The notes under the pieces: generated by a model
Told to the model about the DNA's origin: nothing
Seen by the model: the letters and a program-made list of their open reading frames with translations, nothing else
Databases searched by the model: none
Translations under genes and position numbers: made by a program
Part shown: one piece after another, positions 1 through 10,055 of the stretch
Layout of the letters: each line of letters opens with the position of its first letter
How positions within the stretch are numbered: the stretch's first letter is position 1
NCBI GenBank assembly: GCA_965217115.1
Contig: OZ244239.1
Span: forward strand, 1,888,001 to 1,952,000
Source: Bdellovibrionales bacterium
Lineage (GTDB): Bacteria; Bdellovibrionota; Bdellovibrionia; Bdellovibrionales; CAYMLA01
DNA length: 64,000 bases
Direction: 5' to 3'

Positions 1-31
1 GTCAACTCTTGTTAAATAGGGGTACTTTTCC

Positions 32-2446
32 GTGGAGACAGACTTAAAATCAGACGCTTCTAAAAATGTGAATGGAGAGGTTAAGAAGCTATCTAAAAGC
101 AGTCCCGTGCCTCAAAGGGGAGTGTTTACCGAAGAGGCGAGAAAGAAGAGATTGTCTTTTTTAACAAATCAAACAGGCTGTGATTTGAGTTCCCTGGAGG
201 AGATGAAACTTTTCCCAGAAGATCTTGCGGGAAACATAGAGTGTCTTGCTGGAGCAGTCGAGGTTCCTATTGGTATTGGTGGCCCACTTTTTATCCAGGG
301 GCAGGGCTGGAATGAAAATATTTATGCCCCTATTGCAACAACAGAAGGTGCCCTTATCTCCTCGGTGAATCGCGGAACAAGAGCTTTGAATATGAGTGGT
401 GGTGTGACCTCTCGAGTTTTGCGCCGTCGTATGAGTCGAGCACCTATTTTTGATTGTGGCTCTTTTATCCTGGCAATGAAATTAAAATCTTGGTTGCAGG
501 ATCACTTTGCCCAGTTACAAAATAAAATTAAGGAGTATTCCAATCATGGGACTCTGGTGGAGCTTGAATTTCGCCATGGAGGCCCTTGTCTACACGTTGT
601 TTTCTTATATGAAACAGGAGATGCGGCTGGGCAGAACATGACGACGGTTTGCACATGGCAGGCGAGTCAATGGATTCTGGCTCGCTACCAAGCTGAGACG
701 GGTGAGAAAATCATAGATTTTATGCTCGAAGCTAATATGAGTACGGATAAGAAAGCTTCGGTTCACTCCGCCTTGCAAGGCCGTGGGCGTGAAGCTATAG
801 CGGAGGTCTTAATTCCTGAGAAAGTTTTCTGTAGGGTGTTTCGTACAACTCCTGATCTCATTGTTAAAATGATGGCCCAGGCCCAGGCGGGACAAATATT
901 TACAGGAATGCAGGGGTTTAATATCAATGTGGCAAATATTATTGCGGGTCTTTTTACATCGACAGGTCAAGATATCGCCTGTGTCCATGAGTCGAGCATT
1001 GGGCAGTTTTATGTTGAAAAGAGAGACGAGGGTATTTATGCCAGTATGCATCTCCCTAATTTGGTGATTGGAACAGTTGGCGGCGGTGTGGGACTTCGGG
1101 TGCAACGGCAGATGCTTGAACTGATGGGTTGCTTTGGAAATGGAGGCGCAGATCGTTTAGCGGAAATTATCGCGAGCTATTGTTTGGCTTTAGACCTCTC
1201 AACGGCGACGTCTCTATTGAACGGACGTTTTGTGGGAGCCCATGAACGCTGGGGAAGGAATCGCACAAAAAATTGGTTGAAGAAATCGGAATTGAACACG
1301 GATTTTTTTAGTAACATTCTAAAATCCTCTTGTCTGGAAAAAGGGCCTGTTAAAAGAGTCACGGAGTTGGAGACAGTCAGTGGTGAGAGTTTTGTGATGA
1401 GTTTATCGACTGAAGTGACGAATCGACTTTGCGGACTTTGGATCTACGGCGTTAAATATGAAAATAATAGTTTTGAAGAACCTATATTTGTTAAATCAAA
1501 AGTGAAGGATGATGAACTTTTGCAGGCAACAGAGATGATGGCCCACCTTTGTGATAATGAGTTAGGAAAAAAAGTTGAGAGATTTCGGGCGTATAATCTC
1601 TTTAATAAATGTCATATTAAAGAATTGGAACTAGCTAGGTACGAGAGTGAATCTCTCAATGGAATTCGCCCTAAGACTTTGGGAGTTGAGTTACAAGAAG
1701 AGCGAGAGACCTATGTGTTAGTTCAAGAAATGATTCAAGGGGCTGAGTTATTAGATTGTGTCGATGAGAGAGAGGCTTGGTTAGAAGAGCACCTTAAAGA
1801 GGCTATTCGAGGAATATCCTGTGTCCATGGTGAGTACTTGGAGGCAACACAGGAGTTCATTACAAAAGAGTGGTTTGGGGTTATTCCATCGCGAGACTCA
1901 ATGGTTGAGATGACTCCCTTGTGGAAGGAACTGATCTCTTATATGAAAGAAGAATTCTGCGATTGGTTATCGCCTGAGATGGCTGTGAAGCATCAAAGCA
2001 TTATTGACTCGATCTCCACTTGGTGGGGAGAAATAGAATCAATGCCTAAGACATTGATTCACCACGATTTTAATTCTCGCAATATCACGTTTCAGCGTCG
2101 AGATGGAAAATTAAATTTATTGGCCTACGACTGGGAGTTGGCAACAGTTCATATCCCCCAAAGGGATGTGGTAGAGCTTCTGTGTTTTACATTGAATGGG
2201 GATTTTGATGTTTCTTTAGTTGATCAATTGATAGAATTTCATCGCCTGAATGTGGAAAGAGAGAGTGGGAAAAAAATCTGTTCTAAAAAATGGAGGCAAG
2301 GTTTTCTCTACTCGGCCTATGATTTTTTAATTTATCGCCTATCTCTTTATAGCATTGCCCATCGACACAGGGCTTGCTCGTTTTTAGAGCCATCTTATTG
2401 TACGACAATGAAATTGATTAACTTTTTGGAAATAGACGTAAAATGA
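32..2446 (+). CDS. Class I-like HMG-CoA reductase fused to a C-terminal APH/choline-kinase-like phosphotransferase domain
   Basis: HMGR motifs PIATTEG, GDAAGQN, TDKK, TGQD, GTVGGG and a C-terminal AH; after about aa 415, kinase motifs FVKSK, TLIHHDFNSRNI and AYDWELA. Confidence 0.9.
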   Translation: METDLKSDASKNVNGEVKKLSKSSPVPQRGVFTEEARKKRLSFLTNQTGCDLSSLEEMKLFPEDLAGNIECLAGAVEVPIGIGGPLFIQGQGWNENIYAPIATTEGALISSVNRGTRALNMSGGVTSRVLRRRMSRAPIFDCGSFILAMKLKSWLQDHFAQLQNKIKEYSNHGTLVELEFRHGGPCLHVVFLYETGDAAGQNMTTVCTWQASQWILARYQAETGEKIIDFMLEANMSTDKKASVHSALQGRGREAIAEVLIPEKVFCRVFRTTPDLIVKMMAQAQAGQIFTGMQGFNINVANIIAGLFTSTGQDIACVHESSIGQFYVEKRDEGIYASMHLPNLVIGTVGGGVGLRVQRQMLELMGCFGNGGADRLAEIIASYCLALDLSTATSLLNGRFVGAHERWGRNRTKNWLKKSELNTDFFSNILKSSCLEKGPVKRVTELETVSGESFVMSLSTEVTNRLCGLWIYGVKYENNSFEEPIFVKSKVKDDELLQATEMMAHLCDNELGKKVERFRAYNLFNKCHIKELELARYESESLNGIRPKTLGVELQEERETYVLVQEMIQGAELLDCVDEREAWLEEHLKEAIRGISCVHGEYLEATQEFITKEWFGVIPSRDSMVEMTPLWKELISYMKEEFCDWLSPEMAVKHQSIIDSISTWWGEIESMPKTLIHHDFNSRNITFQRRDGKLNLLAYDWELATVHIPQRDVVELLCFTLNGDFDVSLVDQLIEFHRLNVERESGKKICSKKWRQGFLYSAYDFLIYRLSLYSIAHRHRACSFLEPSYCTTMKLINFLEIDVK

Positions 2447-5064
2447 TTTTACAATCCTACAGAGATAAAGACACAGAGGTTGTAAATGAAGTGGGAGGCA
2501 AGGCAGCTAATTTAGCATGGCTGTCTGCCCGAGGATATCACGTCCCTAAATGGCGAGTGATACCAGCTAATTATTTCTTAGTAGATAAATCGAGCGAGAA
2601 ATCATTGGAGATAAATTCTGAAATTAAGGAATGGATGGATGGCTGTGGGTTGGACTCTATTGCTGTTCGTTCCTCTATGGTGGGAGAGGATAGCCGAGCT
2701 TGCTCTTTTGCGGGGCAGTTGAAATCTTACATGAATCTTAAAAATGCTGAGACCATTGAAAAAAAAATTGATGATTGTTATTTTAGCGCGTTCTCGGATT
2801 TGAATAAAAACTATCTAAAGAGACAGGAAATGAAGTCTGACTCTATTCGCATGTCAGTGATTCTCCAAGAGATGATTGAAGGTGAAAAATCAGGAGTTCT
2901 TTTTACGACAAATCCTGTCAACGGTTGTCGTGCAGAGTATGTGATTTCAGCAGGGTTTGGCTTAGGTGAAGGAATTGTCAGTGGTCAAGTTGATTGTGAT
3001 GAGTGGACTCTAAGCGCCTTAGATGGACAAGTGTTGAAATCAGAAATAACGACTAAGAAAAAAATAGTTAAGGCTGCAAGGGAAGGCATAGAGACAGAAG
3101 ATTTATCGACGGAACAGAGTTTGAGCCATGTTTTAAGCTCAGAGGAATTAGAAAAACTGTACCGCTTGGGAAAGAGTATAACCAAACAGAAGGGATACCC
3201 ACAAGATATCGAGTGGACGATAAAGGGCGAGAACCTGTACGTTTTGCAAACTCGTGATGTCGTGTCTCTAGCTGATGAAACTCCTGTAGGTGAGCCGTAT
3301 GTTTTTAATAACTCAAACATTCAAGAGAGCTTTTGTGGTTTAACGTCTCCGTTGACTTTTAGCTTTGCCCGAGAAGCTTACCATCAGGTGTATTCTCAAT
3401 TGATGGAGATTATGGGTTTTTCTCGTTTACAGGTTATGCAAGAAGATCGTCGCCATAGTCAGATGTTGGCTTTGGTTCGAGGACGGGTGTACTACAATAT
3501 CAATAGCTGGTATCGTGGTTTGTTGCTCTTGCCCTCTTTTGGACGGAATAAGAGAGATATGGAAAAAATGATGGGCATTGAAGAGCCCATTGATTTTGTT
3601 GTGGATTTAGAGTTGGGTTTTCTAGATAAAATCAAAAAAATCCCGCAGGTGCTTTTTTTGCTGATTCGGGTAGGAATCAAAATGGCTTTTATGCCGAAAC
3701 TTTTTTCACGCTTCCGTGCGCGCTTTTACACTGACTTAGAAGCTTTTAAGAAGGGTGGACTTTTTGGCCGCTCGGCAGAAGAGCTACAGGGAATTATAAA
3801 TGAAGCCAAAGAGTCTTTTCTAAAATCATGGGATGCTCCTGTGATTAATGATTTTTGCGTTATGATGTCCAGCGGTAAGGTGAGGCGTGAGTTAGAAAAG
3901 TTAGAGTCTGAAGAGCTCTATGGCGATGTTCTGGCAGGAGAAGATTTAGAGAGTGTAAACCCAACAAAAGAGTTAATTCGTATAAGTGATTATATTAAGT
4001 CAAAACCTGTTGTGAGATCGGCTTACTTAGAAAATGTAGACAATATGAGTGTTTGTCGATTAGAGAGAATAGATAAGAAATTGGCAGAGATGGTGGCGGG
4101 TTATATTGAAAAATATGGTGATCGAGTGATGGGGGAGCTGAAGTTAGAGTCCCTTTCATTACATGAAGACCCTAGTTTTGTTTTTCAGATAATAGGCTCT
4201 TTTTGTCAGGATGAAAAGTTAAACCTAAAAGACTGGCAATCAAGGGAACAGCAGAGAAGGGCGTCTTCGGAAAAACAGATCCGTCAGAAGATCGGTTTTT
4301 TGAAATGGTATTTTTTCAAGAAAAAATTAAATCAGTTAAGGCAGAGTGTTCGTTTTCGAGAGGCGATGCGTTTGGATCGAACACGGTCTTTTGGGTTTTT
4401 CCGTCAGGCTTATCGCGCTATGGGGTACGCTTTATTGAATCGTGGCTGTTTAGAGAAGTTAGAAGATATTTTTTATTTATCCACTGAAGAGATAGAGAGT
4501 TTTCTCTGTGGCCAAGCCTTCTTTGATAATCCAAAGAACTTGGTTCAACTACGAAAAGATCAGTATAAAAAGTGGGAAGAAGAGGATGCCCCCTGTCAGT
4601 TAGAGGGATGGGCGCCATTTTCCATGGAAAACTCTACAGAGAATCCATTGAATCCGTCATTACTGGATTCAGTGGAGTCGGAGGGTTTTCAGGGAGAAAA
4701 TTATTTCAAAGGCCTTGGTTGTTTTCCTGGGGTTGTTGAGGGGGAAGTGGTTGTTGTTCAAAATCCTCAACAGGCTCAAAATTTAAAAGGAAAAATTCTT
4801 TGTGCTGTGAGAACAGATCCAGGATGGACGCCTCTCTTTGTACAGATTAAGGGTCTATTAGTTGAGAGGGGTTCGAGTCTTTCACACTCGGCGATTGTTG
4901 CCCGTGAAATGGGTATCCCGACTGTTGTGGGAATTGCTAATTTAACAAAAATATTAAAGACAGGTGACCGTGTAAAGTTAGACGGTGCCCATGGTTTAGT
5001 TATAAAGGATGAAAGTGATGATGTTAGAACCTCGTCAAATCACAAAAACGAAACCACCCTATGA
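2443..5064 (+). CDS. PEP/pyruvate-binding (ATP-grasp) plus phospho-His swivel protein, RPH/PigC-like
   Basis: VGGKAANL, AVRSS, SFAGQ, GLGEGIVSG, QDIEW, LQTR; C-terminal TDPGWTPLF and LSHSAIVAREMGIP; ATGA overlap with the upstream gene. Confidence 0.9.
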   Translation: MILQSYRDKDTEVVNEVGGKAANLAWLSARGYHVPKWRVIPANYFLVDKSSEKSLEINSEIKEWMDGCGLDSIAVRSSMVGEDSRACSFAGQLKSYMNLKNAETIEKKIDDCYFSAFSDLNKNYLKRQEMKSDSIRMSVILQEMIEGEKSGVLFTTNPVNGCRAEYVISAGFGLGEGIVSGQVDCDEWTLSALDGQVLKSEITTKKKIVKAAREGIETEDLSTEQSLSHVLSSEELEKLYRLGKSITKQKGYPQDIEWTIKGENLYVLQTRDVVSLADETPVGEPYVFNNSNIQESFCGLTSPLTFSFAREAYHQVYSQLMEIMGFSRLQVMQEDRRHSQMLALVRGRVYYNINSWYRGLLLLPSFGRNKRDMEKMMGIEEPIDFVVDLELGFLDKIKKIPQVLFLLIRVGIKMAFMPKLFSRFRARFYTDLEAFKKGGLFGRSAEELQGIINEAKESFLKSWDAPVINDFCVMMSSGKVRRELEKLESEELYGDVLAGEDLESVNPTKELIRISDYIKSKPVVRSAYLENVDNMSVCRLERIDKKLAEMVAGYIEKYGDRVMGELKLESLSLHEDPSFVFQIIGSFCQDEKLNLKDWQSREQQRRASSEKQIRQKIGFLKWYFFKKKLNQLRQSVRFREAMRLDRTRSFGFFRQAYRAMGYALLNRGCLEKLEDIFYLSTEEIESFLCGQAFFDNPKNLVQLRKDQYKKWEEEDAPCQLEGWAPFSMENSTENPLNPSLLDSVESEGFQGENYFKGLGCFPGVVEGEVVVVQNPQQAQNLKGKILCAVRTDPGWTPLFVQIKGLLVERGSSLSHSAIVAREMGIPTVVGIANLTKILKTGDRVKLDGAHGLVIKDESDDVRTSSNHKNETTL

Positions 5065-7189
5065 GTTTGTAACAGATGAAACAGTTACAAACGGGATTAT
5101 TCCAGAGGAGAGTATTGCCTATCCTCTGTGGAAGGATCGTTTTTCTGAAGAAGATCGATTTTTCTTAGTTGCGGGTGGGCGGAGATCTTTGGCTCTGAGT
5201 CCGAAGCAAATATGGAGAGGAGCTTGCCGTTGGGCACAGCTCTTAGAGGCACAAACAGAGATGGGCGATAGAGTGTTAATTTCATTGGAAAATGGAAGAC
5301 ATTTTATTGAGATTTTCTTTGCATGCGTTCTCTCGGGAAGAATTGCGGTTCCTTTGGTTCATCATTTATTACTGGCAAAAAAAGAGTTCTACGATCTAAT
5401 ATTAGGAGTCCAGGGGGTTGTTGCAGGGAAGTTGATTGTTTCTGATCTATCAGCTTTTGAGTTTATTGATGGGACTCCATTGATTCATGTGGAAAAGCAG
5501 AAGCTCCCCTCTTTTGAAGAGCCCAAACAATGGAGAGGGCAGAACTCGCCTGAGGATCTGGCATTTATTCAATTTTCATCAGGAAGTACGTTACAACCCA
5601 AGGGAGTGATGCTTAGTCATCGAGCGGTTACTGAGAATATTCGACAGATCATAAAGGGGCTAGATGCAAGGCCTGATGATAAACTGGCGACATGGCTTCC
5701 TTTTTACCATGATATGGGGCTTATTGGTGGACTCTTAACTCCTATAACATATGGGAGTCCTGTTTTTCTTGCTGCCCCGACGGAGTTTATTCGATCACCA
5801 GAAGATTGGATGAGGCTAGTGAGTCAGGAGAGATGCACGGTTATCATGGGGCCTGACTTTTATTATCGGCAACTTGTTAAAAGAGTGTCCCAGCATTGCT
5901 TAGATGAAATTGATCTCTCTTGCGTGCGTGTTGCTATGTCAGGTGCTGAGCCTGTGAGTGCAAAGAACTGTCGAAATTTTCTTAGTTATTATTCCAAAAC
6001 AGGGCTAAAGAGTCATGTGATACTTCCTGTTTATGGCTTGGCTGAAAATTGTTTGGCTGTGACTTTTCCGAAGGTTGATGAAGAACTTCGAACCCTTCGC
6101 TTGAGTTCAGAATCCCTTATAAGGGGTCGAGGAACGAATCATTTTGTCGTTTTAAGTTCAGATATGAATAACTCCATTGAGATTGTGTCGTGTGGAAGAC
6201 CATTGCCTGGTGTTGAGGTGAGTATTGTAGATAGGGAAGGTCATTTATTAGTAGAGAGGCAATTAGGGGAAATTGTATTAGATTCTCAGAGCGCTGCCAG
6301 TGGGTATTATGGGCAGTCAATGGAGGGTGAGAGTTCTCTGTGTGATAATAGGATTGTGACAGGTGATCTTGGTTTTATGGACAGAGGAGAGCTTTTCATT
6401 GTCGGTCGAGTTAAAGATCAAATTATTTTAAATGGAAAAAACTTTGCCCCGATAGACTTTGAACGTCACCTTGTCGAATTAGATAAATCAGGATTTGGAA
6501 GAGTGGTTGCTGTGGGTTCTTCTTTGCAGGCAGGTGAAGAAGAGCGGGTAGTGATTCTTGTAGAGATGAAATCTCTTAACCCTTGGTTTCGTTTGCGAAT
6601 GAAGAGAAGGGCTAAAGAGGTCTTGAGAACCGTCGGGAACGGGACTCCCTGTGTGTATATTGTTCCATCAGGGGTGTTGCCGAGAACATCTAGTGGCAAA
6701 ATTAAGAGGTACAAGATTAAGGAGAGCATTCCCAGGGGGACCTATAGGTTTTATGACAGGTTTTTTGTATTAACTTGGTTGTTTACAAAGTTTAATCATT
6801 TGCCAGTGTATTTTCGTGTGTGGCAACGGTTGTCATCTCGACAGAATAGGAAATATTCTATGGAGCACTTAAAAAACTATTTTAAAAAATCAACCCGTGT
6901 AGAAGTAACGGGCAATGTGAACGAAAAAGAAGCTCTAGAGGTTTTTTTCCGCAATGAACTCGCCTCAGTGCTAAAGGTGAGGGCGTCTAAAATTCGACTT
7001 AAGCGTTCTTTTATAGATTATGATTTAGATTCTGTTGATGTTGTGGGCTTGAATGCTCGTTTAAAGGAGACTATTGTGAATATTCCTCTAGCGAGTTTCA
7101 TCCAATTTCAATCAGCAGAGGAGTTAATTAAATACCTGCTGAAGGAGTATAAAGATGAAGTTAGATGTTGGTATCAACGGAGAGCGTAA
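5009..7189 (+). CDS. Fatty acyl-AMP ligase (FAAL) with C-terminal acyl carrier domain
   Basis: FIQFSSGSTLQPKG, WLPFYHDMGLIG, YGLAE followed by a FAAL-type insertion, TGDLG, PRTSSGK; ACP-like DLDSVDVV near the C-terminus. Confidence 0.88.
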   Translation: MKVMMLEPRQITKTKPPYEFVTDETVTNGIIPEESIAYPLWKDRFSEEDRFFLVAGGRRSLALSPKQIWRGACRWAQLLEAQTEMGDRVLISLENGRHFIEIFFACVLSGRIAVPLVHHLLLAKKEFYDLILGVQGVVAGKLIVSDLSAFEFIDGTPLIHVEKQKLPSFEEPKQWRGQNSPEDLAFIQFSSGSTLQPKGVMLSHRAVTENIRQIIKGLDARPDDKLATWLPFYHDMGLIGGLLTPITYGSPVFLAAPTEFIRSPEDWMRLVSQERCTVIMGPDFYYRQLVKRVSQHCLDEIDLSCVRVAMSGAEPVSAKNCRNFLSYYSKTGLKSHVILPVYGLAENCLAVTFPKVDEELRTLRLSSESLIRGRGTNHFVVLSSDMNNSIEIVSCGRPLPGVEVSIVDREGHLLVERQLGEIVLDSQSAASGYYGQSMEGESSLCDNRIVTGDLGFMDRGELFIVGRVKDQIILNGKNFAPIDFERHLVELDKSGFGRVVAVGSSLQAGEEERVVILVEMKSLNPWFRLRMKRRAKEVLRTVGNGTPCVYIVPSGVLPRTSSGKIKRYKIKESIPRGTYRFYDRFFVLTWLFTKFNHLPVYFRVWQRLSSRQNRKYSMEHLKNYFKKSTRVEVTGNVNEKEALEVFFRNELASVLKVRASKIRLKRSFIDYDLDSVDVVGLNARLKETIVNIPLASFIQFQSAEELIKYLLKEYKDEVRCWYQRRA

Positions 7190-8120
7190 GAGAAAAGTTT
7201 TTTCTTTTTCATTAGAAGAACTGAATTATCGATCTGAGCATGAGTCCTTCGATTTAAAGAATATACAGTTTCAAGGAAGACCATCTCCTGATATTCCATG
7301 GATGCCTAATGATATGTTGCCAGTGTCGTATTTACCGGCTTTCAAGTTGTTGTCTGCTGAATTGAAAATGGTGTTTAATCAGGCTTATGCCCAAGCCATT
7401 TGTGAACAGTTTATATGGTTTGAGCAAGTTCTATTATGTAGCATTTTGAAAAAAACTCTTGATAAAAAACAATTACCTGCTGACTTAAGAACGTGTTTAC
7501 AGCATTTTTTTGACGAAGAGGATAAACATTCAGAACTTTTTTGGCGTGTATTAGAGTATTCTAATCCTGAGAGATATTTTGAGAGAAAGTTTTTTTATTA
7601 TCAGGCTAATATTGTGCAGACGAGCTTTATTAAGATGATAGCTAGCTATCCAGATAACTTTTTAGTTTGGATATGGTTGGCTATTTTCTTTGAAGAGAGA
7701 ACCATTGAGTTCAGTCGTAAGTATAAAGCTGTTGAAAAAACATTGGAACCCGTGTTTTCTCGGGCTCATTATTTACATCTCTTGGATGAATCTCGTCATG
7801 TCCAAATTGATCAGTACCTATTGGAGCAATTTTATAACAAAGCCTCTAAAAACAAACGTCGAGTCGCTTCTTGGATGTTAGAGTCAGTTTTAAAAGCCTA
7901 TATTTCTCCCCGGCGGGTGGCTTGCAATATTGTGAAGCACCTATCAACTAGATTTCCTGGGGAAAAGAAGGGGCTTGATAGGCTGGCATTGGAGCTGCCT
8001 CTCTTGCGCACCCATAGGGAATTTCAGTCAGCGACTTTTGGGCCAAGAGCTCTGCCGAGAACACACACTCTTTTGCGTAATTATGAAGAGATGTCTGATG
8101 TTCTTCATCTGCTGACCTGA
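7155..8120 (+). CDS. AurF/CylC-like ferritin-fold diiron oxygenase
   Basis: Metal-ligand pattern WFE...DEEDKH...FEE...HLLDESRH. Confidence 0.8.
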   Translation: MKLDVGINGERKRKVFSFSLEELNYRSEHESFDLKNIQFQGRPSPDIPWMPNDMLPVSYLPAFKLLSAELKMVFNQAYAQAICEQFIWFEQVLLCSILKKTLDKKQLPADLRTCLQHFFDEEDKHSELFWRVLEYSNPERYFERKFFYYQANIVQTSFIKMIASYPDNFLVWIWLAIFFEERTIEFSRKYKAVEKTLEPVFSRAHYLHLLDESRHVQIDQYLLEQFYNKASKNKRRVASWMLESVLKAYISPRRVACNIVKHLSTRFPGEKKGLDRLALELPLLRTHREFQSATFGPRALPRTHTLLRNYEEMSDVLHLLT

Positions 8121-8127
8121 TGTGCCG

Positions 8128-8280
8128 TTTTTTTTCTAGAGTCTCTCCCAAAAGAATCTAGCCCTTTTCTTGCTCAAACATCCGTTTGTCACCTTCCATT
8201 GCAGAGAAATGCAATGGAAGTCGCCAAGCCAAACTCGCCGAAAAGAACTGGATTCTTTTGGGAGAGACTCTAGAAAAAAA
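8128..8280. repeat. Long hairpin element, divergent member of the conserved-core repeat family
   Basis: Arms ttttctagagtctctcccaaaagaatc / gattcttttgggagagactctagaaaa around GCTCAAACA...CCAAACTCGC, with inner hairpin cttccattgca/tgcaatggaag. Confidence 0.85.
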
Positions 8281-8524
8281 GGACGTATTCAATCAATTGA
8301 GTCAATGGATCTATCTCTATGACTGACCTCCATGTATAACAACGCTGTTATCCATGGATCGTTTTAGAAAGAGAGCCCTCAAGATGAGTCTCTTGGGAAC
8401 AGTTCCACTATTTATCACAAAGAACCATACTTTAAGCCAGAAAGTAACCAGCTATTTGAAAGGGTAACCCTCAATATGAGGCAATTCGGCGTCATTATAG
8501 TTTCACGGTGAAAGAATATATTTT

Positions 8525-8552
8525 TAAAGGAATGCCCCCCATATTCCGATGA
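8525..8552 (+). promoter_or_regulatory. Putative sigma28 (FliA) promoter
   Basis: TAAA-N16-TCCGATGA, 31 nt upstream of ORF 8584. Confidence 0.55.
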
Positions 8553-8583
8553 GTCATAGAGCCTTTAAGGGGGGTATTTTAAT

Positions 8584-8871
8584 ATGGTTTTACAGGGAAA
8601 TTTACAGAATATGTTTGATGCTCTCTATCTCTTAGGAGCTATAGACCCCGTGTTGCAAATGGATTGGATGGAGGCTCTTGATGAGCTTGAGGAACAGTAT
8701 GAGCAACAGGCCCATGTGGAGGAAGTTATTACGGTGGTTTCCGATCACAATGGAGATGTCAATGAGTTGGCAGAGTCTTTGAAAAAATTTGACGACAGAA
8801 CTCTGGCTTATCTAGCGATGGAAGTCGCCAGGGAGTTTGCTAATTTCCATACGCGTGAGTATGTGCATTAA
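8584..8871 (+). CDS. Small acidic hypothetical protein
   Basis: Clean 95-aa ORF with purine-rich RBS and promoter-like motif upstream. Confidence 0.7.
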   Translation: MVLQGNLQNMFDALYLLGAIDPVLQMDWMEALDELEEQYEQQAHVEEVITVVSDHNGDVNELAESLKKFDDRTLAYLAMEVAREFANFHTREYVH

Positions 8872-8936
8872 AAGAGAGGATGGCAGCAGGATTTTTTTTT
8901 AATATTAACCAACACCCCATTAAAACTGTGTGAACT

Positions 8937-10055
8937 ATGTCTAAAGATCAATTAGGAATTTACAGAGAAGCCATTAAAAGTTTTCTAGCTCCCGTTTGGG
9001 GTTTCATGGAAGACGATAATGTCTCAGAGATTTTAATCAACGGACCTGGCGAGGTCTTTATTGAGATGAATGGCAAATTGAAGAAAGCGGAGGTTTGTTT
9101 TGAGAGTGAAGATGCTTTACGTGCGGCAGTGAACAATATTGCCCAAAGTGTGAATCGTCGTATAGATGATGACAACCCTCGTCTAGACGCAAGATTGCCC
9201 GATGGGTCAAGAATTTCTGTGGTGATACCTCCCTGTTCTTTACAGGGAACAGTCGTGAGTATTCGTAAATTCACACAGACTGATATTTCTTTCCGCGATT
9301 ATATTAAATCTGGTTCGATCACTCAGGAAGGAGCCCAGTTTTTAGATGTGAGTATGTTTTTGGGAAAAAATATCTTAGTCAGCGGTGGTACGGGGTCAGG
9401 AAAGACAACTTTGTTAAGTCTTTTATGCAACCGTATTCCTAAGGGGCAAAGACTCATTGTGATTGAAGATTCGGCTGAGTTGCAGATCAATTATGAGCAT
9501 GTTTTAAAATTTGAAACGCGCATGGCTGATGAGCTGGGCAAGGGCGCGGTGACGATTCGTGATTTGGTAAAGAGCAGTTTGCGTTTGCGACCAGATCGTA
9601 TCATCGTGGGTGAGGTTCGTAGTGCTGAGGCCTTGGATCTTTTGAATGCGATGAACACGGGTCACAAGGGTTGCATGGGAACAGTTCATGCCAATTCTCC
9701 AGAGGATGCGATTGTGAGGTTGGAGGCTCTGGCTCAGGGCGGAGACTCTCAGATCAGTGAGAAAGCTCTGCGTTATCAGGTGGCAGCAGGAATTGAATTA
9801 ATCGTGCAGGTCTCAAGATATTCAGATGGCTCCCGTCGTATTGCTGCGATATCAGAAGTGTTGGGGTTTAACGATGATGGAAATTACCATGTAGAGCCTA
9901 TTTTTATGATGTCTCATTTGGTGCGCGGGACTGATGGAAAGTTGCAAGGACAATTGGAACCCGTGGGAAGATTGCCTTCGTATATGGATGAAATCGAGGA
10001 TAATCGCCTGCCCTTTGGCAGAGAGCTGCTTCTGAAACCGGAAAAAGCCGCCTAG
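8937..10055 (+). CDS. cpaF: CpaF/TadA-family secretion ATPase
   Basis: DARLPDGSR, Walker A GGTGSGKTT, LRLRPDRIIVGEVR, AMNTGH, TVHANS. Confidence 0.93.
   Translation: MSKDQLGIYREAIKSFLAPVWGFMEDDNVSEILINGPGEVFIEMNGKLKKAEVCFESEDALRAAVNNIAQSVNRRIDDDNPRLDARLPDGSRISVVIPPCSLQGTVVSIRKFTQTDISFRDYIKSGSITQEGAQFLDVSMFLGKNILVSGGTGSGKTTLLSLLCNRIPKGQRLIVIEDSAELQINYEHVLKFETRMADELGKGAVTIRDLVKSSLRLRPDRIIVGEVRSAEALDLLNAMNTGHKGCMGTVHANSPEDAIVRLEALAQGGDSQISEKALRYQVAAGIELIVQVSRYSDGSRRIAAISEVLGFNDDGNYHVEPIFMMSHLVRGTDGKLQGQLEPVGRLPSYMDEIEDNRLPFGRELLLKPEKAA

Follow-up and report, generated by a model that had tools for sequence, protein, structure and literature searches.

A reductase-kinase fusion in a Bdellovibrionales genome, with an FcrA-type reductase half, that probably starts an undescribed bacterial lipid pathway

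What is the role of a protein that joins a relative of hydroxymethylglutaryl-CoA reductase (HMGR) to a small-molecule kinase, and does it belong to mevalonate synthesis at all? The question is raised by a gene near the start of a 64,000-nucleotide stretch of a Bdellovibrionales genome (GenBank assembly GCA_965217115.1, contig OZ244239.1, positions 1,888,001 to 1,952,000 of the forward strand), referred to here as the window. Its product, a reductase-kinase fusion, probably starts an undescribed bacterial membrane-lipid pathway. The gene cluster around it would build and export a lipid derived from a fatty alcohol, with the fusion probably serving as the signature enzyme.

The reading frame of the fusion gene is open for just four codons further upstream of its GTG start (808 amino acids), and its stop codon shares nucleotides 2443-2446 with the ATG of the next gene. 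A first-pass annotation, made from the sequence, had described the product as an HMGR with an APH/choline-kinase-like C-terminal half. Both domain calls were right, as Pfam HMG-CoA_red matches the N-terminal half and the C-terminal half models confidently as the named fold. The motifs it had picked out were all located in the protein, namely ECLAG (amino acids 70-74) and DAAG (197-200), altered from ENxIG and DAMG of HMGRs, and HHDFNSRN and DWE of the kinase half. A homology search with the fusion protein gave 1310 matches. The best 120 of these, the window's own protein counted among them, cover at least 93% of the query; the other 119 are 40-68% identical to the window protein, and 112 of the 120 have a precomputed APH or EcKL annotation. 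Relatives are encoded in 361 stretches of one-genome-per-species contigs, 80 of which were fetched and form the set of related loci counted below. The N-terminal half was matched in all 80 and the C-terminal half, over at least half its length, in 79. Because 79 of the 80 loci encode both halves, the fusion is genuine, and the assembly artefact that the first-pass annotation had allowed for can be set aside.

Most gammaproteobacterial and deltaproteobacterial homologues (P0023, P0031, P0036, P0042, P0048, P0051, P0053 and others) have an N-terminal extension of about 100 amino acids (alignment A1, columns 1-140), which is absent from the window protein. Motifs resembling RxxxR and DxSxxG, seen by eye, suggested a PilZ domain as an unverified lead; no PilZ match at E<=0.01 was obtained with Pfam in four scanned homologues that bear the extension (P0023, P0036, P0114 and P0051).

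The reductase half matches Pfam PF00368 with E=1e-95, and its best sequence match in the PDB is the archaeal class I HMGR 6hr7 (E=9e-71). In an alignment of 26 full-length homologues, from which the residue counts that follow were taken, the class I catalytic residues that the first-pass annotation had considered retained, E105, K240, D314 and H404, are each invariant (26/26). Nevertheless, the fusion protein scores 262 bits against the HMGR equivalog model TIGR00533, below its cut-off of 441.8. Class I HMGRs are also the origin of FcrA, a fatty acyl-CoA reductase (Grossi et al. 2025, ISME J 19:wraf035, PMC11948995). As described in the main text of that paper, FcrA retains the catalytic Glu, Lys, Asp and His, converts fatty acyl-CoA to the alcohol and does not reduce HMG-CoA; in its pocket Ser684 is replaced by Glu, a conserved Lys (printed as Lys795) by variable, generally small residues, and Leu862 by a bulky residue (PMC11948995).

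In printed alignments with 6hr7 and 8ecg, E233, Q283 and F400 of the window protein stand at the Ser, Lys and Leu of the class I pocket, so that none of the three is found in the fusion protein. The lysine printed as Lys795 is presumably Lys735 of the human enzyme, which binds HMG. The Ser position is Glu or Asp in 26/26 homologues, Lys is kept in one of 26, and in all 26 Phe takes the place of the Leu, at a position four residues ahead of the catalytic His. Judged by these residues, the reductase half is of the FcrA type and not a true HMGR, since such substitutions remove the ligands of the HMG carboxylate. The ENxIG change is partly local to the window, as 22 of the 26 homologues have Ile at the fourth position, and DAAG or DASG is common to the whole family. 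Stand-alone HMGR-like relatives have 42-52% identity, apart from one 68%-identical fragment, and those of 389-460 amino acids with 43-50% identity are common.

That the protein could instead be a genuine HMGR with a non-GHMP mevalonate kinase, forming a compact entry to the mevalonate pathway, is suggested by the strength of the PF00368 match and the presence of all four catalytic residues. However, a second PF00368 gene lies 1.55 Mb from the fusion and is a class II HMGR by TIGR00532 (331 bits, cut-off 260). It forms a separate operon with a type 2 isopentenyl diphosphate isomerase (IDI-2), a diphosphomevalonate decarboxylase and a GHMP mevalonate kinase, the separate HMGR and GHMP kinase for which the first-pass annotation had proposed to check the genome. 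Two of the three GHMP matches in the genome fall within this operon, and GHMP_kinases_N has no match in the fusion protein. Neither IspH, which belongs to the alternative pathway, nor, with PF01154, an HMG-CoA synthase was found in the genome. Between the HMGR and decarboxylase genes there is a 321-amino-acid open reading frame (ORF) with no Pfam or NCBIfam match, at the expected place of a phosphomevalonate kinase; this ORF and the missing synthase mean that the mevalonate pathway is not fully accounted for, a point on the side of the genuine HMGR. Against it stand the low equivalog score, the replaced HMG-binding Ser and Lys, the inability of FcrA with the same changes to reduce HMG-CoA according to the main text of its description (PMC11948995), and the genome's own mevalonate operon. 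The conserved neighbours of the fusion are lipid genes, not isoprenoid-precursor genes, and relatives of its kinase are joined to unrelated reductases behind acyl carrier domains. We consider a genuine HMGR highly improbable, and the non-GHMP mevalonate kinase proposed in the first-pass annotation is not supported. By sequence and context, the fusion is not part of mevalonate synthesis.

The kinase half was modelled with AlphaFold2 from an alignment of 28 homologous domains, with a mean pLDDT of 91.2 and a pTM of 0.91. A Foldseek comparison of the model with the PDB gave 270 matches at E<=0.001, every listed one being a kinase of the APH/choline-kinase fold. A C-terminal half that did not adopt this fold would have spoken against the first-pass annotation, and the model shows the opposite. 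The best, at probability 1.00, are all small-molecule kinases; corramycin phosphotransferase (8agy), YtaA (2q83), PsiK, LicA, type II homoserine kinase (2ppq), choline kinases and ethanolamine kinases are among the fold matches. The longer homologues P0023, P0036, P0114 and P0051 match PF01636 at 37-41 bits, P0013 does so at 22.4 bits, and P0002 has no match. Three of these four longer homologues also pass the cut-off of PF02958 (22) with 26-30 bits, and P0114, at 21.4, falls just below it. K488, K490, H677, D679, N684, D700, W701 and E702 are invariant (26/26), and conservation of K488, K490, H677, D679, N684, D700 and E702 is at least 90% across 150 representatives of the kinase family. An HxDxxxxN loop, an acidic metal-binding motif and an N-lobe Lys are therefore present, with roles assigned by analogy to known kinases. 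The substrate is predicted to be a long-chain alcohol.

This prediction draws on the fusion partners of the kinase. A kinase-domain profile searched against 1.84 billion representatives gave 2287 matches, 472 of them at E<=1e-30, and the best 150 of the 2287 were sorted with purpose-built hidden Markov models, twelve being checked against Pfam. An HMGR-like domain precedes the kinase in 45 of the 150 (with an acyl carrier protein, ACP, in front in one and a fatty acyl-AMP ligase, FAAL, plus ACP in another). In 63 the partner is a thioester reductase of the short-chain dehydrogenase/reductase (SDR) type (PF07993), preceded by ACP in 33 and by an AMP-binding domain in one. The remaining 42 consist of the kinase only, some being clearly fragments. 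A thioester reductase of one of two unrelated folds is thus carried by 108 of these 150 best representatives. In a FastTree phylogeny of 141 kinase domains, whose branches have SH-like support and no bootstrap, one change divides the HMGR-fused from the SDR-fused forms, and stand-alone kinases are scattered over the tree. Taken from these sequence patterns, the two reductase types are a case of non-orthologous displacement, and the kinase is constantly paired with a thioester reductase, whichever the fold, that is supplied by a carrier or a ligase. This pairing is the strongest argument that the kinase acts on the alcohol product of the reductase. Together with the FcrA-type substitutions, fusion of the kinase family to an unrelated thioester reductase behind ACP or FAAL supports the other possibility raised in the first-pass annotation, a reductase-kinase acting on a non-HMG thioester.

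One protein links the fusion to a neighbouring gene. P0360 contains FAAL, ACP, HMGR-like and kinase domains in 1454 amino acids. It aligns with the product of the FAAL-ACP gene two genes downstream of the fusion (29% identity over the FAAL part, E=6e-62) and with the fusion itself (E=6e-150), and by these alignments appears to be a Rosetta-stone link between the two genes.

From domain identities, fold, residue conservation, fusion patterns and gene neighbourhoods we infer the substrates, the products and the order of steps. It is likely, in our judgement, that a fatty acid is activated, reduced to a primary alcohol, phosphorylated to an alkyl phosphate, and then elaborated and exported. Activation could yield acyl-CoA, by the acyl ligase of the cluster, or acyl-ACP, by the FAAL-ACP. 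The FcrA-type domain would most likely carry out a four-electron reduction of the long-chain acyl thioester to the primary fatty alcohol, and the fused kinase would transfer phosphate from ATP to that alcohol. The sequence would parallel, on a fatty chain, the conversion of HMG-CoA to mevalonate and phosphomevalonate.

Alternatively, the reductase might make the alcohol or only the aldehyde, and the kinase might act on another hydroxyl, either a hydroxy group of an acyl chain on CoA or ACP or the alcohol of a polar head group. Among solved structures, the closest in sequence to the kinase half, and its top match in a PDB profile search, is the ACAD11 kinase domain (8v3v, E=7e-4), aligned in the catalytic loop region only. 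ACAD10 and ACAD11 act on a hydroxy group of a CoA-bound acyl chain. The choline, ethanolamine and homoserine kinases among the fold matches also fit such a role, and the CDP-alcohol transferases of related operons would suit a head-group route as well. However, fusion to a thioester reductase in 108 of 150 representatives ties the kinase to the product of the reductase rather than to a free head group, and the cytidylyltransferase of the operons is of the membrane CarS type, not the soluble head-group type. Known members of the CarS type act on lipid phosphates. We regard a kinase for another hydroxyl as rather unlikely, and phosphorylation of the fatty alcohol remains the preferred reading.

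The fusion leads four same-strand genes with overlapping ends (Table 1). The second encodes a phosphoenolpyruvate (PEP)-synthase-like swivel-His phosphotransferase with no Pfam match to a PEP/pyruvate domain; all its NCBIfam matches, to PRK06241 'PEP synthase' models, rifamycin phosphotransferase and PigC/RedH, are below cut-off. This gene was matched by tblastn in 55 of the 80 related loci, in 52 over at least half of the query. An AurF-like gene, here the last of the run, also comes after the PEP-synthase-like gene in L005 and L006, two Bdellovibrionales loci. Upstream lie genes for an acyl ligase, a UbiA-family protein, a tandem GNAT protein, a resistance-nodulation-division (RND) exporter and a DUF3419 protein. 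The betaine-lipid synthase BTA1/BtaA belongs to the DUF3419 family, as stated in the relevant passage of PMC10685587. A scan of positions 1-9000 for promoters and terminators gave no clear difference from shuffled sequences.

Table 1. Positions of the fusion, its domains and motifs, and other genes discussed. Coordinates are those of the window unless a locus is named; L004 is G000:C1:1878001-1890500, and its genes listed here lie upstream of the window.
Feature	Coordinates	Strand	Basis or remark
Reductase-kinase fusion gene	32..2446	+	ORF list; GTG start; 804 aa
Putative FcrA-type (class-I-HMGR-like) acyl-thioester reductase domain	140..1258	+	aa 37-409; PF00368
APH/choline-kinase-fold kinase domain	1277..2443	+	aa 416-804; AlphaFold2 model, Foldseek
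Catalytic loop HHDFNSRN	2060-2083	+	aa 677-684
DWE motif	2129-2137	+	aa 700-702
PEP-synthase-like swivel-His phosphotransferase	2443..5064	+	Pfam PPDK_N and PEP-utilizers mobile domain
FAAL with acyl carrier domain (FAAL-ACP)	5009..7189	+	Pfam AMP-binding, PP-binding; NF006624 E=4e-104
AurF-like di-iron protein	7155..8120	+	PF11583 E=3.8e-16; end of four-gene run
Acyl-CoA-ligase-like gene	L004 149-1750	-	
UbiA-family gene	L004 1901-2800		
Tandem GNAT protein, 353 aa	L004 2801-3862		modelled, pLDDT 84; best match 7q3a
HAE3/HpnN-like RND transporter	L004 3911-6148	-	
533-aa protein	L004 6233-7834	+	no family match; relatives accompany the RND transporter in Bdellovibrionales locus L006
DUF3419 protein	L004 7838-8950	-	
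242-aa protein	L004 8996-9724	-	no family match; hydrophobic N-terminus, possibly secreted
Mevalonate operon	G000:C1:about 327900-334400 (locus L003 5918-12383)		outside the window; IDI-2, class II HMGR, decarboxylase, GHMP mevalonate kinase

Further along, past the lipid genes, the window encodes a 95-amino-acid acidic ORF without a family match (8584-8871) and a T2SSE-family (type II/IV secretion) ATPase (8937-10055, E=2e-53). Neither is conserved with the lipid genes.

Neighbours were counted in the 44 related loci with enough flanking sequence. A PEP-synthase-like gene and an acyl ligase are each found in 33, tandem GNAT in 30, UbiA and a CarS-like membrane protein in 29 each, an MMPL/HAE3 exporter in 25, a separate CDP-alcohol transferase resembling PssA and archaetidylserine synthase in 18, and a LolA-like protein in 14. 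The best solved relative of the UbiA family is the digeranylgeranylglyceryl phosphate (DGGGP) synthase 6m31 (E=9.5e-8), and the CarS-type matches in these operons have E-values of 1.7e-5 to 1.1e-9. The cluster includes genes for the swivel-His phosphotransferase, the DGGGP-synthase-like UbiA protein, the tandem GNAT, the acyl ligase and the RND exporter, to which the window's genome adds the BtaA-like DUF3419, FAAL-ACP and AurF-like genes and other lineages add CarS-like proteins and CDP-alcohol transferases.

DUF3419, a second recurring partner, was matched in 6 of the 80 loci and is seen in the window's genome and in L006. In a Polyangium metagenome-assembled genome (MAG) (L017, 8478-12349), the DUF3419 (BtaA-like) gene and the start of the reductase-kinase gene overlap, with an MMPL gene nearby. 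For the GNAT family, which had no match in the PDB profile search, an aminoacyl-tRNA-dependent function was also considered, given class II aminoacyl-tRNA synthetases beside some operons and a GNAT fold like that of FemX and MprF. The synthetase is a genuine asparaginyl-tRNA synthetase, above cut-off, and the GNAT model fits acetyl-CoA-type tandem GNATs better (TM 0.45-0.54) than tRNA-dependent ones (0.32-0.35); the aminoacyl-tRNA idea was rejected.

For the SDR-type fusions, a sample of 80 metagenome loci (L092-L171) was taken. They occur in a nine-gene operon that begins with a fatty acid desaturase, a CarS-like protein (PF01864, 34 bits), a PEP-synthase-like protein, a 232-amino-acid protein of no assigned identity and a methyltransferase, and continues with a PlsC-like acyltransferase, FAAL, the ACP-reductase-kinase and a CDP-alcohol transferase; its named members are Gemmatimonadota. 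Both operon types encode a fatty acid activator, the reductase-kinase, a swivel-His phosphotransferase and an acyltransferase, together with a CarS-like protein and a CDP-alcohol transferase.

Carriers of the HMGR-fused form include many Gammaproteobacteria (Marinobacter, Thalassolituus, Bermanella, Hahella, HdN1, Fluviicoccus and Pseudomonas MAGs) as well as Bdellovibrionales, Polyangium, Spirochaetota, Entotheonella and Streptomyces. Because the kinase was found in just one of 30 genomes of the same order, the fusion gene is accessory and patchily distributed. Such a distribution would also fit a cluster whose product is a diffusible secondary metabolite, for instance a signal or antibiotic in the form of a phosphorylated or prenylated fatty alcohol, and not a structural lipid of the envelope. 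The FAAL-ACP and AurF-like oxygenase genes, the resemblance of the PEP-synthase-like gene to PigC/RedH and rifamycin phosphotransferase, and the homologues in Streptomyces and Entotheonella point the same way. However, the CarS-like, phosphatidylserine-synthase-like, MMPL/HAE3 exporter and LolA-like genes of related operons are typical of head-group assembly and outer-membrane transport, and polyketide synthase or nonribosomal peptide synthetase modules were absent from the Pfam-checked conserved neighbour families, of which representatives were scanned. A diffusible product therefore seems unlikely to us.

For the steps that follow the alkyl phosphate, we tentatively propose that the fusion catalyses entry into a phospholipid pathway with the logic of archaeal lipid and Kennedy routes, working on fatty-acid-derived chains and completed by either of two routes. 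This more specific proposal is possible, although clearly less secure than the general one. By the first route, a CarS-like protein would activate the alkyl phosphate with CTP and a CDP-alcohol transferase would add a head group, giving a glycerol-free alkyl-phospho lipid. By the second, the swivel-His phosphotransferase would form an alkyl diphosphate, from which the DGGGP-synthase-like UbiA protein could transfer a non-isoprenoid alkyl group in making ether lipids. Export of the product to the outer membrane might be carried out by the RND/LolA-like system.

Several observations weigh against a fatty alcohol-based lipid pathway. Both enzymatic activities are read from sequence and a structural model. 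The assignment to FcrA is based on diagnostic residues and context. In the window protein the Pfam APH match (amino acids 663-734, E=4e-4) reaches 20.6 bits, below the cut-off of 23.2, and for the ACAD11 kinase domain, its closest solved relative by sequence, the target is the hydroxyl of an acyl-CoA rather than a free alcohol. The swivel-His phosphotransferase has a role in the cluster that the proposal leaves unexplained; its gene was not detected by ORF clustering in eight Streptomyces loci, and the checked neighbours at one of these, L073, are not lipid genes. The rarity of the kinase within the order belongs here as well. Finally, no CarS-like gene was found in the window's genome, and its only two CDP-alcohol transferases are both away from the cluster, so the downstream steps must differ from those of Gammaproteobacteria. 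In this genome the lipid is probably completed in another way, perhaps by the BtaA-like protein.

FcrA as an enzyme type is known, and the literature searched contains no description of a kinase-fused FcrA, of the displacement between two reductase folds or of the pathway. The terms 'fatty alcohol kinase', 'long-chain alcohol kinase' and 'CDP-alkanol' did not occur in it. The main text of PMC11948995 has no occurrence of 'kinase' or 'APH', though its supplement may list kinase-fused FcrA forms, and the available part of the Lipocone paper (bioRxiv 10.1101/2025.01.14.632903) does not deal with the cluster. In databases these proteins are labelled 'hydroxymethylglutaryl-CoA reductase (NADPH)' or simply 'phosphotransferase', and such labels wrongly imply mevalonate metabolism in hundreds of genomes. 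If the proposal is right, bacteria have a dedicated fatty alcohol kinase coupled to conserved archaeal-like lipid genes. The family is sizeable, with its 472 representatives at E<=1e-30 and the HMGR-fused form alone at 361 species-level genome loci, and it spans marine hydrocarbon degraders, soil Gemmatimonadota-like bacteria, Spirochaetota and predatory bacteria. A new class of envelope lipid, and a new route from fatty acids to phosphorylated or ether-linked lipids, can thereby be put to the test, and the presence of the cluster in several named culturable strains makes direct lipidomics possible. Strains with names among the loci include Fluviicoccus keumensis DSM 105135, Atopomonas hussainii JCM 19513, Thalassolituus pacificus, Hahella sp. 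SMD15-11 and Marinobacter sp. SS5-14b.

The closest known counterpart of the reductase half is FcrA, with which the window protein shares the class I HMGR fold, the catalytic Glu, Lys, Asp and His, and the three pocket substitutions (Ser to an acidic residue, Lys lost, Leu to a bulky aromatic residue). According to the main text of its description, FcrA likewise occurs in bacteria with their own isoprenoid pathway and in forms fused to ACP (PMC11948995). The window protein differs in having a C-terminal APH-fold kinase and no N-terminal Lad domain, and its bulky residue is Phe, whereas that of FcrA is Trp. Its context is a phospholipid-like cluster, in contrast to the wax-ester synthesis by WS/DGAT in which FcrA is found; WS/DGAT (PF03007) has no match in the genome, a result made uninformative by control genomes that are equally silent. 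With class I HMGRs (6hr7 from archaea, 8ecg and 7uli from plants, 1dq8 from human), the protein shares the catalytic residues and the overall domain, but ENxIG is changed to ECLAG, DAMG to DAAG or DASG, and Ser/Lys/Leu to Glu/Gln/Phe, and it falls under the equivalog cut-off and outside the mevalonate operon.

The kinase half has the bilobal fold, HxDxxxxN catalytic loop and acidic metal-binding motif (DWE) of APH/choline-kinase-fold kinases, but identity to them is only 10-14% and query-normalised TM-scores are 0.35-0.52. As for the pathway as a whole, it would differ from the archaeal ether-lipid route in that the chain comes from a fatty acid by reduction and not from isoprenoid diphosphates, and no geranylgeranylglyceryl phosphate synthase was seen; in the window's genome, a BtaA-like DUF3419 gene is present instead of CarS. 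The related operons nevertheless share with archaeal ether-lipid and Kennedy routes a DGGGP-synthase-like UbiA protein, a CarS-like protein and a transferase resembling PssA and archaetidylserine synthase, and they appear to follow the logic of phosphorylation by a kinase, activation with CTP and transfer that underlies both the Kennedy pathway and the archaeal head-group route.

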